DNA from: Candidatus Hydrogenedentota bacterium | Lineage (GTDB): Bacteria; Hydrogenedentota; Hydrogenedentia; Hydrogenedentales; JAEUWI01 | Assembly: GCA_034669905.1 (NCBI GenBank) | Contig: JAXMOL010000029.1 | Span: 26,010 to 90,009, forward strand | Length of the DNA stretch: 64,000 nt | Direction of reading: 5' to 3' | Shown: in pieces, positions 9,214 to 17,971 of the stretch | Layout: the number at the start of each line of letters is the position of its first letter | Position numbering within the stretch: the first letter of the stretch is position 1 | Notes under the pieces: model-generated | Database searches by the model: none | Told to the model about the DNA's origin: nothing | What the model saw: only the letters and a program-made list of their open reading frames with translations | Position numbers and translations under genes: made by a program

Positions 9214-10656
<1,443 letters not shown>

Positions 10657-10814
10657 AGCTTCCCCTTTGCTTTGATTTTGATACGCGGTGAATGTTTCAT
10701 GGTAGGTAGTCTAATAGCAATCACGCAAGTTTTGCCTGGGCGTTTGTGTTGGTGGTGTGGCCGGGGATGGAAAACCCAGGGGCGGCCTCCTGTTCTTGGT
10801 GGTAACTCAAGGCG

Positions 10815-10863
10815 CGAAGTGGCGCTTTGGTGACTGCATTTCCAAGTGGCGCTTGGCAACGAG
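10815..10863. repeat. degenerate REP-like palindromic element
   Basis: AAGTGGCGCTT occurs twice (10817, 10844); the second lies in the palindrome CCAAG-TGGCG-CTTGG followed by CAACGAG. Confidence 0.4.
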
Positions 10864-11033
10864 GGTGGCAGGGACGTTCTGCCGCCGCAAGGTGATGGGG
10901 TGGGATGTTTGCCGGCAGCCTTTTTGTAGGAGCTGGTGTCGCCGGAGTGTCCTTCGGGCGGCTGCACGTCCCGGTGGGGCGTTGCAGAGGTGGCGGCTTT
11001 TCGGGATGGGGCTTGTGAGGGAGTCGTGGGGCG

Positions 11034-11475
11034 TCGAGCCTACGGCCACCGGGACAGGAACGCGCGTTAGCGTGGTGGCGGTGATGCAATGGGTGCGGGT
11101 TGGCGCGACGCGACCGCGACTCCGCAGGGCTCTTGGGCGCGATACCGTCCCTTTGGTGCGCTTTCGGGTGGGAAGGGGTCGCCCCTATGGAGCGCCGACG
11201 GCCTGTCGGCATGGGTGCCAATGGCACCTCATCGGAGTCCGCTCTTGGAGCCGTTGGGACCCCTTCGACCTTTTTGACATTGCTAATAAGTCATAGGGAT
11301 ACTATAGAAGTAATTCGGTCATGGGCAGGGTTGAGTGATATAGCGGCGAGCGACAAAGGCCTGGTTAAAACGGCAGGAGCGATACCATGTGGGGTACGAA
11401 TATCTGGGGTGCTTGGACTGATGGCTGTAATCCATATAGAAGAAGAGGGATAAGGGTGACGGTCTCTGGTTGTTT
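11034..11475 (+). repeat. ~440 bp direct repeat, copy 1
   Basis: Colinear with 14662-15102; near-identical over the first ~280 bp, more diverged afterwards. Confidence 0.95.
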
Positions 11476-11585
11476 CAACTTCCTCGACCAGTTGGACGGG
11501 CTGTCGGACCGTGTGCTACGCCCTAAAAAGCCGGGCCGCCCCAAGAAGCGTGCGGGGGAAAGGGTAGAATTACGTAGTCTGTCCC
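11468..11585 (+). pseudogene. probable 3' remnant and right end of an HUH/Y1 (IS200-like/RAYT-like) transposase
   Basis: Translates FLDQLDGLSDRVLRPKKPGRPKK, resembling Y1 transposase C-termini from memory; followed by AATTACGTAGTCTGTCCC. Confidence 0.5.
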
Positions 11586-11590
11586 TTGGT

Positions 11591-13246
11591 TCTTTGAATT
11601 ATCAACATACAGATTCCAGCCGAGTGGTCGTGTCGGTGGCGGGCGGCGATGCGCCCCTGGAATTGAACCGGGGGACGAGTTCGCCCACCAGACGCTATAT
11701 TACGGTGCGGGGAGGGACGGCCTTGTCGCTGACGGCCGAGTCGAACAATCCAAGTGGTACCGGCTTGCGGGTCTATGGCGAGTATTCGCAAGCGTCGACC
11801 AACGCCCTGTCGAGTTCTTCCGTGATGACCATTGCGGCACCTTATGTGGCGATCAGTGGTGGCGCGGCACCCTACGGCACGGGCACGGTAATGGGTACGA
11901 TGGCGAACGGCCAGGCGGTGGTGGCCATGGGGGATTTGGAAATTCCCATTACGATGGACCGCCTCGTCTACCCGCTGCCGAACCCGACCACGGCGCCCTG
12001 GACGAAATGGACCGAATTCCAGTGGCTTCCTGACCCGGGGTTCTACGTCTATTCGGTAACCAGTCCCGATGCCACCGACCAAAACCCCAATCCGACCGGC
12101 AGCGCCGAAACGCGGCCCATGAAAATCCTGACCTTGAATGACGCGGAGTGTCTGGATGATTGTGATCTGAACGAACACGGAAACGCCAAGCTCATCAACG
12201 CCAAGCGCTACTACATGGGGCCCCGAGCGAATAACCCCAATGGGGAGTTGGTGGGCTTACGCCCGGTGACACACCCGGGCCATGTCTTCAAGGGCTTTGA
12301 CATCTCCGGTACGGACAATGTCTGGCTCGCCGAAGATGAGGAGGTGGACGATTTCTACAGTCTGTCCGATATAACTGGTCCGGCCACAAAGAACGGGGAT
12401 GGACTGTACATGTGCGAGGAAACGGAGCCCCTGTATATTGAGATGTCTGAGAGTGTTAGTGTGACGCCGGTGTTTGAGGGGCCACCAGAGCTTTACTGGT
12501 TTTGCAGGGCGCTGTGTTTGCCACAGAAACGAACTACCATTGGAATTGGTGAAGAAGTTTCCGTTCATGCACTCGGCAGCGATGGTCAGATCTACGGACA
12601 GTCTGTACGGTGGGATATTGAGGGCATCGGTGCCAAGTCGATCTCGCCGTCTTACGGTAAGAATGCAATTTTTACGGCGGCAAAAGTTGTCGGTCCAGCA
12701 TCGGCAACCGTTTTCGCCTATGATGGTGATTGCGTTGTTGCTGAATTGCATTTTACGGTGCTCAGCCCGACAGGAGAAGCAACCGTACATGATTCCGATG
12801 ACAGCCCATGGCAGAGTGGGAGTGAGGCTCTCAGTGCGAGGACCATATTCGAAGTGACGGTTCTTCCCAATACGGTATGTTTCGGGAATATCCAAATTGA
12901 TGAAGAAGATGATGAGGTCTCTAGTCCTTGGCCCAATGAAGGCATGGGTGATTGGTCTACGTCGTCTGGCTCAACGTTTGATGTAGAGTGCGACAACACG
13001 TTCTTGGACTATTTCACAGAAGACTTGGCGCTCAAGTGGAATTTCTTTATAGATGATACTGACAGTTATGTGGATTTCAATGCCCTATTCAGTTTTCGCA
13101 ATAGATTTCCAACTGATTCCGGTACTTGGGTCTACTACGCGGACGTCGAAACTTGGGTAGAATATAAACCTAGTTTTTACTTCATGACCCGACACAAACG
13201 AAACGGTGTTTCAGGAGATTGGGTGGGGCCATGGCGTTATTGGTGA
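11591..13246 (+). pseudogene. start-less C-terminal module of a large extracellular (polymorphic toxin-like) protein
   Basis: The 11387 ORF begins in repeat/transposase DNA; coding-like sequence starts right after the end motif; no signal peptide; beta-repeat-like segments (HPGHVFKGF, MSESVSVTPVF), then RTTIGIGEEV and a more AT-rich acidic tail. Confidence 0.6.
11594..11752 (+). repeat. 159 bp coding repeat, copy A
   Basis: 154/159 identical to 14439-14597; encodes LNYQHTDS.RVVVSVAGGDAPLELNRGTSSPTRRYITVRGGTALSLTAESNNP. Confidence 0.95.
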
Positions 13247-13310
13247 TAGGATCTAATAATGAAAACCAAGGGGCGCGCGCAAGTGACAAGCCGCGAAGAA
13301 AGGTGTTGCT

Positions 13311-14168
13311 GTGAAATATAATTCGATGCTCCTCGTTAGAGTGTTCATTTTGGTTGGGGTGATGCCAAGCTTGGCGTTTGCTGATGCACTCCAAGATGAG
13401 CTGGATGCGTTGCATACAGAGATCGTTCAGCACGAGGGAGCCGTCGGCGAAGGGGAGCTGAAATATCTTGAGTTGGTAAAGGAATACAATAAGCCGGAAC
13501 AAGTCGGTCGTATATACGCCGGGTTGGCAGATATGTTTTTCGATTTAGGGTCGGCCGATACGGATTCCGTAAAAAAATACGCTCGATTGGCTTTGACTTA
13601 TCCGTTGGATCCATTAATATCAATGAAAATGTATTTAATTCTTGGCGAAGTGTTGGGTCGTCACGATGAAGGCCGGAATATGCCTGCGGGTGCGTTGACC
13701 AATAGTACTATTGCCTACATGAAGGGGCTCAGGGTCGGGATAGACCAAAAACTGCCCGATGACCTTCGCGAACCTTTAAAGACCTTCGCACTCCGCGGGA
13801 GCGGGCCTGACTACGAGCGGCTACAACGGGAAAACGAGGAGCGGCGAGAGGCTCGAAGAGAATGGTCCCGAATCAAGGAGTTATTGGATATGCGGGACAC
13901 GTTAGAGAGGCGACTATTTTTTTCTTATTGTGAAACTGAGCGATCGGAGAGGGAGTTGAAGGAGTTGGCGATTCAGTATCTGGCGGACGAATTTGCAACA
14001 ACAAGACTTCTTGCCCGATTCAAGAAAGCAAAGGATGAACTTGCCGGCATAGCGATTGAGGGCCCGTCTGTGCTGTATCCGCACGCGCCTGCCGATTTTC
14101 GTGAGAGAATGGGCCTGGGCCCCGTCTTGGAGTCGACCAAGAGCGAGGTAGTCCGCCAGAAAGAGTGA
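13311..14168 (+). CDS. secreted helical hypothetical protein (candidate partner/immunity), 285 aa
   Basis: GTG start with upstream AAGGTG; signal peptide (..PSLAFA-DA); directly follows the module ORF; stop abuts a left-end motif. Confidence 0.75.
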   Translation: MKYNSMLLVRVFILVGVMPSLAFADALQDELDALHTEIVQHEGAVGEGELKYLELVKEYNKPEQVGRIYAGLADMFFDLGSADTDSVKKYARLALTYPLDPLISMKMYLILGEVLGRHDEGRNMPAGALTNSTIAYMKGLRVGIDQKLPDDLREPLKTFALRGSGPDYERLQRENEERREARREWSRIKELLDMRDTLERRLFFSYCETERSERELKELAIQYLADEFATTRLLARFKKAKDELAGIAIEGPSVLYPHAPADFRERMGLGPVLESTKSEVVRQKE

Positions 14169-14172
14169 CGGT

Positions 14173-14229
14173 AAACCCAGGAACACCCAGGGACGGACTA
14201 CTATTTTGACAGCGATTGAGTGTGCGAGT
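14173..14229 (+). repeat. left-end motif L1 (AACACCCAGGGACGGACTAC..GACAGCGATTGAG)
   Basis: Related to 14599-14660 and 16328-16378; inverted relative to GTAGTCTGTCCCTTGG at 11574-11589 (14/16). Confidence 0.75.
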
Positions 14230-14231
14230 CG

Positions 14232-14597
14232 GTAGGCGATGTTCATTACTGGCATGACCTTGTGGTAAAGGCCTCATTTCCGGTGGGTACGGAGGTGCAT
14301 GTGAAGGCGACGGATGAGGACTGGTTTTTGAGTTGGATGGCGAAGGGTTCGCTGCTCCATGGGAGTCCCGTTGCCGAGGATAGTTTCATGCTGACGCAGG
14401 ATACCACGGTGATTGGCCTGGCGAAGGGTGCTCAGAGCTTGAATTATCAACATACGGATTCCAATCGGGTGGTCGTGTCGGTGGCGGGCGGCGATGCGCC
14501 CCTGGAGTTGAACCGGGGGACGAGTTCGCCCACCAGACGCTATATTACGGTGCGGGGAGGGACGGCCTTGTCGCTGACGGCCGAGTCGAACAATCCA
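14232..14597 (+). pseudogene. internal fragment of the same large protein gene, ending in repeat copy B
   Basis: Open frame (..FPVGTEVHVKATDEDWFLSW..SLNYQHTD..SNNP) without a credible start, truncated at left-end motif L2. Confidence 0.7.
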
Positions 14598-14598
14598 G

Positions 14599-14786
14599 AA
14601 AACTTAGAGAAAACTTAGGGACGGACTACCGTTTCTTGGCAGCGACTGAGGGTGTGAGGCCTCGAGCCTACGGCCACCGGGACAGGAACGCGCGTCGGCG
14701 TGGCGGAGGTGATGCGACGGGTGCGGGTTGGCGCGACGCGACCGCGACTACCCAGGGCATTTGGGCGCGATACCGTCCCTTGGGTG
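14599..14786. mobile_element. short non-autonomous element bounded by GGGACGG.. / ..CCGTCCC ends
   Basis: GAAAACTTAGGGACGGACTAC ... GCGATACCGTCCCTTGGGTG; a sister element lies at 16328-16477. Confidence 0.55.
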
Positions 14787-15102
14787 CGCTTTCGGGTGGG
14801 TAGGAGTCACCCCTATGGAGCGCCGACGGCCCGTCGGCATGGGTGCCAATGGCACCTCATCGGAGTCCGCTCTTGGAGCCGTTGGGACCCCTTCGACCTT
14901 TTTGACATGGGTAATAAGTCATAGGGATACTATAGAAGTAATTCACGGGCGACGGCGCTCGTGTTGCATTGCGGCAAGCGACAGAGGCTTTGGGGAAACG
15001 GCAGGAGCAAATCCATGTGGGCTTCGAGTGCCAGGGGTGCCTGGACTGATGGCGCTACTCCATGCAGGAAAGAGGGGTTTTGGTGACTGTCTCTAGTCGG
15101 TT
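14662..15102 (+). repeat. ~440 bp direct repeat, copy 2
   Basis: Colinear with 11034-11475; ends ~27 bp before the ATG at 15129. Confidence 0.95.
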
Positions 15103-15128
15103 CCTGAGTATCGAGAGAGGAAATCAAC

Positions 15129-16247
15129 ATGAAAAGAGTGCCTATCACAAGACTTCTTATTCTCTTGGTGTTTACCACTCCGGCATTTGGAGTTGCCGAC
15201 TCTGTCGGCACGGAAGAGGAGCACGTCTATGTGGTTTCCGCCCAAGATTATAATGGTCCACTCTATCGTCTAAAGATGGCCCTCGATGCAAAATTGGAAC
15301 CTGTGGGTCACTTTCCACCGCTTCAGTATTCTCGGTCCTCAATAGCCTTCAGGCCTGGTCACGACGAGGTGTACGAATTCAAAGGCAATCGAATCGGTGT
15401 ACTCAATTTGAATTCGGGGCGTACGCGGGAAGTCGTTGTTGACGCTGTTAAATACTTCGGAAGAGCTACCGTTTTTTCTGAAGAGGGCGACTACCTTTAC
15501 ACCAATGCAATCGAGCCTGACGGGAAGGGGTATGTCGGTGTAGTCATCGACCCAGAGAAGGGTACGGTACTAAAGCGGATTCAAGAAACTAGAAATTTCT
15601 TTGATACGGCTTGTTTTCTTGTTGGCGAACAATCGCTTCTCTACGGAAGCCGTCGCGGTTTGGTAAATGTGCCTATCACAGGTGACCGTGGTGAGTCGGT
15701 TATTTCTTACTTCACCACCACCAGCAATTTCATACCCTCGGATATTTCTATTCGCGGCGGTACTGTCTACGTTCTTGCTCACGGGCAGAAGGAGAATGCA
15801 GGGTATACCGAGCTGTTGAGAAGAACTGAAAACGAACTGGAGTTCTTGGGTAAGATGCGTGGCGAACCCTTCGGAAACAACGGTGTGAAGGGGGATTGGT
15901 ATTCCTTCGAATGGGAAACCGATACGGTGAACTGTCTCGGGGACGTGAAACCTTCTTACAGAGCCTCGTTGATGGAGCAATTGGGGAAAGAGCGGTTCAA
16001 GAAGTATACAGGCGATGAGAAGACTGGGTACAAGTATGTACTTGACGATCAGTACGTGTACTTGGATGATATCCATTTTACGGATGCCCATCTCGCACCA
16101 AGTGGTAATTTCAGTGTTTTCGTTCACGATGGCGGAGAACGGCGCCCAAGCTTTGTCGTTCTGAGAGACAACAAGAACGGGAAGTGGGGCAGAATCCAAT
16201 GTCTTTCAAAGATTGGTCCAGGAATGACGAACATCGTTTTCGATTAG
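15129..16247 (+). CDS. secreted beta-rich hypothetical protein (orphan partner/immunity candidate), 372 aa
   Basis: GAGAGG RBS; signal peptide (..TTPAFG-VA); beta-propeller-like composition; more AT-rich than the flanks by eye. Confidence 0.8.
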   Translation: MKRVPITRLLILLVFTTPAFGVADSVGTEEEHVYVVSAQDYNGPLYRLKMALDAKLEPVGHFPPLQYSRSSIAFRPGHDEVYEFKGNRIGVLNLNSGRTREVVVDAVKYFGRATVFSEEGDYLYTNAIEPDGKGYVGVVIDPEKGTVLKRIQETRNFFDTACFLVGEQSLLYGSRRGLVNVPITGDRGESVISYFTTTSNFIPSDISIRGGTVYVLAHGQKENAGYTELLRRTENELEFLGKMRGEPFGNNGVKGDWYSFEWETDTVNCLGDVKPSYRASLMEQLGKERFKKYTGDEKTGYKYVLDDQYVYLDDIHFTDAHLAPSGNFSVFVHDGGERRPSFVVLRDNKNGKWGRIQCLSKIGPGMTNIVFD

Positions 16248-16264
16248 GGGGAAGGGAAGGAAAA

Positions 16265-16327
16265 GGCGGCGATGCGCCCCTGGAGCTGAACCGGGGATAG
16301 GTTCGTTGACCAGACGCTATATCACGG
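16265..16327 (+). repeat. degenerate third copy (C) of the coding repeat
   Basis: GGCGGCGATGCGCCCCTGGAGCTGAACCGGGG..ACCAGACGCTATATCACGG matches 11642-11705 with substitutions and a 1 bp deletion. Confidence 0.85.
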
Positions 16328-16477
16328 AAAACCCAGGGGCGGACTGCTGTTTCTTGGCAGCGACTGAATCCGCGAGGTGGCGTATTGCAATGGGCTACGA
16401 TATCTACGCTTCCCAAACGATCTCCCAGAGGGCCTATGGAGCTCGGACGCCCGACGCGATACTGTCCCTTGGGTGTT
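16328..16477. mobile_element. short non-autonomous element, sister of 14599-14786
   Basis: AAAACCCAGGGGCGGACTGCTGTTTCTTGGCAGCGACTGA ... GCGATACTGTCCCTTGGGTGTT. Confidence 0.55.
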
Positions 16478-16610
16478 GAAGCAGCTGCACGTGTGCCTTT
16501 CTTTGATGGCGCTCAAGGCGGCGCGTTTTCCAAAGCGGCATGGCGGGGGGGAGGTAGGCCTGCGCGGAACATTGCCGTTCGCGCGCTTCGAGGCCCGCAA
16601 GTTCACCTCC

Positions 16611-17795: not shown

Positions 17796-17898
17796 TGGAA
17801 AATCCGTTCTCCGGTGTTTTTCTTGGTAAGTAGGGTTTTCGCCGTCATAACATGGGGCCTGAAAGCGGCGTATGGAGGCGCAACAGAAAACCATTTCT

Positions 17899-17971
17899 AT
17901 GTGCTCTTTGCGTTCTTTGAGGTTACAAACAAGGAGCTTTTCAACCACAAAGAACGCAAAGAACACAAAGA
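17899..17971. repeat. outward-facing pair of 9-nt-period repeats
   Basis: GTGCTCTTTGCGTTCTTTGAGGTT and AACCACAAAGAACGCAAAGAACACAAAG are near reverse complements. Confidence 0.65.

Follow-up and report, generated by a model that had tools for sequence, protein, structure and literature searches.

A strain-variable array of polymorphic-protein fragments and secreted partner genes joined at transposase ends in a Candidatus Hydrogenedentota genome

The window analysed here is a 64,000-nucleotide stretch of a Candidatus Hydrogenedentota genome (G000:C29:26010-90009), where G000 is the window's own assembly (GCA_034669905.1; 7.44 Mb in 102 contigs, 95.7% complete, 59% GC) and G003, G005, G007, G008, G015 and G025 are the genomes of relatives. 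Between two minus-strand genes the window holds an array, every part of which lies on the plus strand, in which fragments of a giant secreted polymorphic protein and genes for secreted partners meet at the outer edges of terminal inverted repeats (TIRs). The junctions are sharp, the protein family has a conserved stalk with swappable C-terminal tips, a tip is paired with a cognate partner and the cargo differs between strains. On balance, we favour the reading that this strain-variable array serves as a store in which orphan immunity genes and predicted toxin tips are kept in reserve, with the joints probably made by a TIRYT transposase acting in trans.

In a TIRYT (or TIRtron), terminal inverted repeats with a GGGGWSAS-like core surround a Y1 transposase gene (PMC3733652). 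PMC6006769 equates these elements with TnpA-Y1 subclass 2.1, characterized by HUH, W[EQ], Y-x-E-x-NP and SS motifs and a length of about 238 aa, and describes them as the second-largest Y1 transposase class, present in about 15% of the species sampled. The window contains only the 3' tail of such a gene (11477-11572, +), followed by a right end (11573-11593, -) whose outer edge abuts the first module; as a unit, 11477-11591 matches G000:C11:136334-136448 (77% identity, E=6e-16), where another Y1 transposase gene has its 3' end and right end; this gene is one of 15 Y1_Tnp matches in G000. Intact relatives of this type-1 element lie in G005 between the same ends and are 93% identical to the N-terminal half of the C11 copy. 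An intact G005 copy encodes 229 aa with NHIH, WQ, YVEMNP and SS motifs (Pfam Y1_Tnp, E=8e-13) and has a C-terminal extension, expected to be HTH-like in this class, Pfam having reported Y1_Tnp only. The core AGGGACAG, which agrees with the GGGGWSAS consensus at 7/8 positions, flanks the gene on both sides at G000:C11 and at G005:C23/C429. Since the transposase motifs and length fit, we assign the GGGAC ends by their sequence to TIRs of the HUH/Y1 class TIRYT, subclass 2.1; with YVEMNP and 229 aa, the enzyme differs from IS200/IS605 subclass 1.1, which has a Y---Q motif and a short, core-only protein.

The ends are rare in the genome. The motif GGGACRGACTA occurs just 17 times in 7.44 Mb, three of them in the window, and a position weight matrix (PWM) trained on 19 ends from other genomes found 21 sites scoring at least 20, in eight loci of G000, against none with the reversed matrix; one match, at C2:141263, falls in an unrelated tandem repeat and was scored as a miss. 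Across the phylum, a strict end pattern was present in 9 of 135 genomes (two matches in the reversed control). Within the array the right end at 11573 scores 36.2, and type-1 left ends follow at 14170-14228 (+; 27.6; one outer iteration plus the inner stretch, 1 nt past the stop of secreted gene 1), at 14598-14653 (+; 26.2; one outer iteration) and, with a repeat remnant, at 16326-16480 (+; 21.1), where the end forms the right border of the array and is conserved at the orthologous site in G007. The locus has a second end family. A preliminary description of this DNA had listed a 440-bp repeat and small elements with left and right ends; these parts are present, but the true right ends of the two ~450-bp elements (11455-11476 and 15082-15104) are of type 2, the end family of an intact TIRYT at G000:C30. 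A type-2 end also precedes another signal-less module and partner at G000:C18.

Junction positions were read from a 159-bp stalk repeat, of which two copies (11594-11752 and 14439-14597) are 97% identical and a third, partial piece (16265-16327) is 84-86% identical to them. The first copy starts right at the outer edge of the right end and the other two run up to that of a left end, so that three of the four stalk-repeat junctions (11593/4, 14597/8 and 16327) fall exactly at end motifs on cassette edges; since the copies of the repeat serve as controls for one another, the joints are located to one or two bases. The second copy closes a stalk fragment (14229-14597, +) that is cut at a left end motif; it aligns to the stalk homologue P0003 upstream of the repeat, thus representing the part of the parent gene that precedes the module, and it also matches the giant proteins of G003, G015 and G025. 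The third piece is a shorter stalk remnant (16265-16327, +), likewise cut at a left end and bridged by contig X1 record 7. All the parts listed in the preliminary description were found in their places on the plus strand between the minus-strand flanks; its view of the cassettes as delimited by ends applies to these three junctions but not to the left edge of the third fragment.

The orphan module consists of a conserved stalk (11594-12478, +), opening with the 159-bp repeat and homologous to related proteins up to a VTPVFE motif, and a variable C-terminal tip (12479-13246, +) with a Big_2-type immunoglobulin-like (Ig) domain and an all-beta domain of about 155 aa, which from its context is a predicted toxin. 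Described earlier as start-less, the module does lack a signal peptide, yet an ATG at 11387, with an AGGAG 7 nt before it, stands in an open frame that runs on through the tail of the transposase gene into the module. Neither an RHS core nor a CdiA/VENN region was found in the module by Pfam or NCBIfam. Its homologues (P0002, P0003 and reading frames of G008 and G015) are alike along the stalk as far as a VTPVFE-like motif and differ from there on; in alignments, five stalk homologues bear at least three unrelated tip types, namely that of the window, a type with MepA-like His motifs (P0002 and G015, matching a Peptidase_M74 tip with E=5e-3 and 1e-15) and a third shared by P0003 and G008. A stalk profile matched 11 of 135 phylum genomes, mostly through one Ig-like domain alone. 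Distantly related full-length genes with signal peptides occur in G003:C2 and G025 (about 2000 and 3200 codons, with Ig, InlB-B and leucine-rich repeat (LRR) domains); these giants end in Peptidase_M74 or a polysaccharide deacetylase and are followed by secreted partners and further signal-less modules. Stand-alone tip cassettes comprise the window module and those of arrays in G003:C2, G005:C23 and G025. The proposal of a polymorphic giant-protein family, neither Rhs nor CdiA, with variable C-termini is thus borne out, and full-length parents with a signal peptide exist in relatives, but none was found in this assembly.

The tip family, with 91 representatives, sits nearly always at a C-terminus and is found in one of the 135 phylum genomes, G000 itself. 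Conservation analysis picked out a near-invariant Glu and Asp, and the AF2 model of the tip is confident (pLDDT 93.8), with an Ig domain and an all-beta domain. Weak structural matches were to adhesins and S-layer proteins; a Foldseek search with the whole tip gave only Ig-level matches among those listed in PDB and BFVD, PDB sequence searches gave nothing significant, and Atlas matches for the tip and gene 1, all below 0.9, serve as leads only. No Pfam or NCBIfam family matched the tip/partner pair or the giant-protein family. Screening 4549 candidates for longer homologues gave none, which is weak evidence, and no locus turned up when collections were scanned with the stalk alignment. One candidate parent, at G000:C7:61979-65821, was rejected: it is a distant, full-length paralogue of the stalk that has no cassettes and that ends, instead of in a variable tip, in a PKD-like region, Gly-Glu repeats and a C-terminal anchor. 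Polysaccharide deacetylase domains are interchangeable tips with secreted partners in G025 (L029:9346-20000) and G003 (L028:14667-16967), and are an unusual candidate toxin type. In G008 a stalk-and-tip module (L011:9513-11177) forms one reading frame with the 5' part of an unrelated gene, and no end motif lies at the joint; that gene, presumably SWIM-type, has a homologue at G000:C1:96171-97520.

Directly behind the tip lies secreted gene 1 (13311-14168, +), a predicted immunity gene with a signal peptide recognized by eye and a helical product resembling tetratricopeptide repeats (TPR-like). A metagenome scan yielded 28 tip-family loci, or 24 once four duplicates were dropped, and the genes downstream of these tips are homologous to one another and to gene 1. 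A profile hidden Markov model (HMM) built from 17 of the downstream genes, with the window excluded, matched 21 of the 24 loci, four of the 21 being outside the training set and one of these weak; two of the three misses lie at a contig edge and one locus has no gene. Of the 79,921 reading frames in G000, the same profile matched gene 1 alone (E=2.7e-31), and we conclude from this sequence comparison that gene 1 is the cognate partner of the window tip. A word-indexed search with gene 1 had returned only itself; the family emerged only through gene neighbourhood. The partner family occurs without the tip in G003, and the partners of G008 and G003:C28 are 64% identical behind related tips. Structure prediction, suggested as a check in the preliminary description, was informative for the tip but poor for gene 1 (single-sequence model, pLDDT 55.7). 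Secreted gene 2 (15129-16247, +) is an orphan that starts 24 nt past a type-2 end. It has two distant stand-alone homologues (24-26% identical); no cognate tip was found, and there was no Pfam family over cut-off and no NCBIfam match. The partner domain also lies inside longer secreted frames (455-1147 aa; L153, L155 and L156) in three other genomes, which are possibly poly-immunity proteins. On an unrelated contig (L101:5496-7885) the same tip/partner pair precedes a TIRYT-like gene, whose end is iterated and of another sequence, and an AT-rich orphan secreted gene.

The cargo varies between strains, as had been anticipated. Three unrelated cargos, in the window, at G007:C2 and at G007:C306, lie behind one and the same combination of transposase tail and right end. 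At the orthologous site of the closest relative, G007 (flank on G007:C458, 93% identical), two other secreted genes lie between the same ends, and one of them has a homologue (E=1.4e-28) in G003, the partner gene that follows a giant-protein module there. G007:C2 had been considered as the orthologous site and was rejected, its flanks being different. The assembly itself was checked against contigs (not reads) from four of 20 listed sequencing runs, of which X1 and X2 may be the source data. Contigs of X1 and X2 bridge four of the five internal joints checked without a mismatch (end/module, tip/gene 1, gene 1/end/fragment and gene 2/fragment/end), so misassembly, raised as a concern in the preliminary description, left no sign at the junctions bridged by the listed contigs; the 14597/14598 joint is absent among the contig pieces listed (204 further pieces are not shown). 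In X9 a contig runs from left end to fragment to module, and in X4 the stalk has a depth of 14.7, the window-type tip 6-8 and a joint leaving the stalk at 12448 a depth of 8, about ten codons before the protein breakpoint; both arrangements may involve mixed strains or repeat collapse.

Similar arrangements recur elsewhere in G000 and its relatives. Toxin-tip or immunity-like genes were found in seven of the eight end loci of G000 (by eye for C11, C30 and C91; the loci are perhaps not independent), and each of the three Rhs loci (TIGR03696) has an end no more than about 1.5 kb away, when stretches within 3 kb of an end make up only ~0.85% of the genome. The four Rhs-core matches (C3, C24 and C31) are all short frames of 462-676 aa, C24 and C31 sharing a 5' patch. 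The order of transposase or right end, signal-less tip, secreted partner and left end is repeated at G000:C11 and C18, G005:C23 and C429, G007:C2 and G003:C28, and at G005:C23, G005:C429 and G003:C28 an intact TIRYT directly precedes a truncated tip and a whole partner gene. The tip type at G003:C28 is the one that P0003 and G008 bear on the window's stalk. An intact Y1 transposase with the same ends, the enzyme called for in the preliminary description, is therefore present beside cassettes in G005 (with the second end type in G003), whereas the type-1 copy of G000 itself is interrupted.

HUH enzymes of the IS200/IS605 and IS91 types nick single-stranded DNA and rejoin it. On the strength of this established chemistry, we infer that a TIRYT acting in trans would nick DNA in its single-stranded form where an end has its outer edge, and would join it to unrelated DNA by one-ended capture or adjacent deletion. 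Such joining would trim toxin genes to signal-less tips and spare the partner gene, and the ~450-bp mini-element would provide an outward promoter. Selection would then retain partners for the protection they give, and ordinary homologous recombination would use the remaining stalk to exchange tips or to load them again onto a full-length gene; both steps are modelled on contact-dependent inhibition (CDI), where orphan immunity genes are expressed and orphan tips are functional once reloaded (PMC3150448). Because no parent was found in the G000 assembly, the array here resembles a reserve of immunity genes more than an arsenal ready for use. Only tentatively, and with some doubt, do we put forward a more ambitious version in which TIRYTs would be the recombinases of an integron-like, HUH-driven capture system, the mini-element promoter would express captured immunity genes and stalks would reload tips onto undescribed giant Ig/InlB-B-repeat envelope toxins, one tip being a new all-beta toxin domain with a TPR-like immunity family.

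A number of observations weigh against the reading of the array as a TIRYT-assembled store. Searches of the 95.7% complete assembly by blastn, tblastn, phmmer and HMM found no full-length parent, returning the locus itself only, nor was a full-length Rhs gene found in it. The type-1 transposase at G000:C11 is interrupted by an insertion of ~85 bp, and the intact copy, at C30, is of the other end type, being 51% identical to the intact type-1 enzyme of G005. Where the third fragment starts on its left (16265) there is no end motif, the 14229 fragment does not begin at an outer end, and promoter-like sites in the region are not above chance (6 versus 3.4 +/- 1.8). The tip has no recognisable catalytic or known toxin fold (best Z 7.8, to the Ig domain only), and at L102 three tandem tip genes share one partner. 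Beyond the window, neither type-1 nor type-2 ends were found in the related arrays of G003:C2, G025, G008 and G015, and just one of the 24 tip-family loci has a TIRYT. A phylum survey covered the 30 best loci of 106 listed matches, one from each genome and with flanks of 1.5 kb; judged by eye, three of them had a tip or a piece of Rhs at an end and about three an orphan secreted gene, the rest being beside ordinary genes or contig ends. Because arrays without these ends exist and most of the TIRYTs surveyed adjoin ordinary genes or contig ends, the ends are neither required for such arrays nor confined to them.

These last observations are what would be expected of an ordinary graveyard of polymorphic-toxin cassettes shuffled by homologous recombination, in which TIRYTs are selfish passengers that trim their surroundings by adjacent deletions and have no role in capture. 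We regard this account as unlikely, if deserving of serious attention. Most of the best 30 of 106 phylum TIRYT matches do lie between ordinary genes, arrays without ends do exist, tips diverge at a protein motif within the stalk and not at an end, and insertion sequence (IS) or transposon genes often interrupt CDI orphan modules (PMC3150448). Passengers, however, sit poorly with ends that abut cargo in a recurring orientation and leave partner genes whole, with three different cargos behind an identical end, with seven of eight G000 end loci being toxin/immunity-like and an end at all three Rhs loci, and with a mini-element that retains a promoter-like site facing the cargo.

The nature of the cargo allows another account, in which the tip is a variable adhesin or self-recognition domain, gene 1 its chaperone or receptor, and the array a store of recognition modules of the kind known as VARTIG. 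The Ig and all-beta domains of the tip, with their weak structural matches to adhesins and S-layer proteins, the lack of a matching Pfam or NCBIfam toxin family, the single partner for three tandem tip genes in L102 and the VARTIG precedent (PMC8416519) all suit it. Yet the same stalks and arrays bear enzyme-like, envelope-directed tips, each with its own secreted partner (Peptidase_M74 and polysaccharide deacetylase, and by eye HEXXH, GHSHGG and transglutaminase-like motifs), partners are retained as orphans and the tip has its near-invariant Glu and Asp, and we therefore think this account improbable. Least credible of all, in our estimation, is that the repeats and fragments are an artefact of metagenome-bin assembly. 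No listed contig piece contains the 14597/14598 joint or spans the whole stretch, and X1 and X2 may be the source data; but contigs of those runs bridge four joints without a mismatch, the repeat copies differ from one another by point differences and the same architecture is present in G003, G005 and G007.

If the TIRYT-assembled store is compared with what has been described, its ends are those of TIRYTs (PMC3733652, PMC6006769) in having a Y1 HUH gene within near-GGGGWSAS inverted repeats, matching motifs, and solo or clustered repeats elsewhere in the genome. In the accessible text of these two papers the ends are not linked to cargo ('Rhs' occurs in neither, 'toxin' 0 and 1 times), whereas here the outer edges abut truncated toxin-like tips and partners, and mini-elements carry a promoter-like site. 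With the orphan C-terminal and immunity modules of Rhs and CDI loci (PMC3482391, PMC3150448) the array shares a conserved stalk that breaks off sharply before variable tips, the placing of the partner gene behind the tip, whole partner genes, and orphan modules that lack a signal peptide and keep more or less of the stalk. It differs from these loci, as far as the available text describes them, in its carrier, an Ig/InlB-B-repeat/LRR giant protein that is neither Rhs nor CdiA, and in having secreted partners, envelope-directed enzyme-like tips, cassette edges at transposase ends and no parent at the locus. The recombinase-associated orphan immunity arrays of Bacteroidales known as rAID-1 (bioRxiv 10.1101/471110) likewise combine co-directional low-GC accessory genes, repeated intergenic motifs, strain differences and a predicted recombination function nearby. 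In contrast to what is accessible of that description, immunity is a prediction here, the GC content is below that of the host yet above the 41% cut-off used for Bacteroidales, no XerD-type recombinase lies at the 5' end, TIRYT ends are the repeats and toxin remnants are kept. No tyrosine recombinase gene of the rAID-1 or integron kind heads the array, only a Gfo/Idh/MocA gene and repeats preceding it.

A TnpA-REP transposase of the same subclass 2.1 is associated with prochlorosins, full copies and 3' fragments lying amid a diversifying family (bioRxiv 10.1101/2020.03.09.984088). In that case the genes point towards the transposase, inverted repeats were not found and a causal claim was withdrawn by the authors (bioRxiv 10.1101/2020.03.09.984088), whereas in the present array the joints carry inverted repeats and the cargo points away from the right end. 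In the VARTIG system of Thermococcales the beta domain at the C-terminus of a large Ig-domain protein is hypervariable and the genes downstream vary too, but the system is archaeal, and the accessible text mentions neither transposase ends nor enzyme tips (PMC8416519). A full-text literature search that left subscription journals largely uncovered, and whose scope lay outside the supplements of PMC3482391 and PMC3733652, which may list such domains or loci, found no link between TIRYTs and toxin/immunity cassettes. In the available text of PMC3733652 and PMC6006769, TIRYTs have no demonstrated substrate or role, a question that the locus and its relatives make directly testable, offering exact junctions, intact enzymes and before/after strain pairs. 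An HUH route to orphan toxin/immunity modules would join homologous recombination and the XerD-linked rAID arrays as a possible origin for them.

The array's left neighbour is a Gfo/Idh/MocA oxidoreductase gene (9214-10656, -) and its right neighbour a DUF3500 gene (-); both flanks had been called catabolic, a label not established for DUF3500, a family of unknown function. The array had been taken to start at 11020, with its parts correctly identified, but the variable region begins earlier, since a degenerate type-1 left end with an inner conserved stretch already lies at 10769-10824 (+; 81% identical to the 16326 end; PWM 14.5; aligned with other left ends). A dispersed palindromic repeat (10849-11228, strand not assigned) has a homologue in the DNA that flanks the intact type-2 TIRYT of G000:C30 on its 3' side, and has blastn matches on C30, C22 and many further contigs. 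The two mini-elements of ~450 bp (11026-11476 and 14654-15104, both +) are 85% identical by blastn (11026-11476 versus 14654-15103); the first comprises the dispersed repeat, a promoter-like site and a type-2 right end. Each has a putative sigma70-like promoter, TTGACA-18-GATACT (10/12), pointing at the cargo (11274-11303, +, in the first and 14902-14931 in the second), whose hexamers are kept in four copies with a variable spacer. An Rfam search of the region gave no match.

Base composition, given as GC content overall and at third codon positions (GC3), is 0.48/0.47 in the tip, 0.51/0.55 in secreted gene 1 and 0.48/0.52 in secreted gene 2, below the 0.62/0.78 and 0.57/0.63 of the flanks, as had been judged by eye. 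The stalk, however, is not AT-rich (0.58/0.71), and both it and the 14229-14597 fragment look native in composition.

Further observations concern the ends and neighbouring elements. The ~85-bp insert in the C11 TIRYT gene (G000:C11:135980-136070; L002) itself bears a GGGACAGAC-like end, and similar inserts occur inside left ends at G005:C23 and G005:C429. Tandem iterations of 8-11 bp of the end itself are common at outer edges (L064:752-820; L066:5900-6020; window 14170-14179 and 14598-14608), with up to about five in G005, and suggest repeated cleavage and rejoining. At L102:2492-7556 the three tandem tip-family genes are full-length and signal-bearing, and precede a single extended partner gene. 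An intergenic element of ~130 bp is common to arrays of three genomes (L028:13805-13940; L064:6574-6710; G000:C3:164630-164746), one of which has no TIRs. Some TIRtrons overlap or adjoin the start or stop of housekeeping neighbours (L135, L137 and L138). Lastly, a 34-bp inverted repeat (85%) at window positions 17896-17971 belongs to another dispersed family, whose tandem units are also found at G000:C2:141000-142200.

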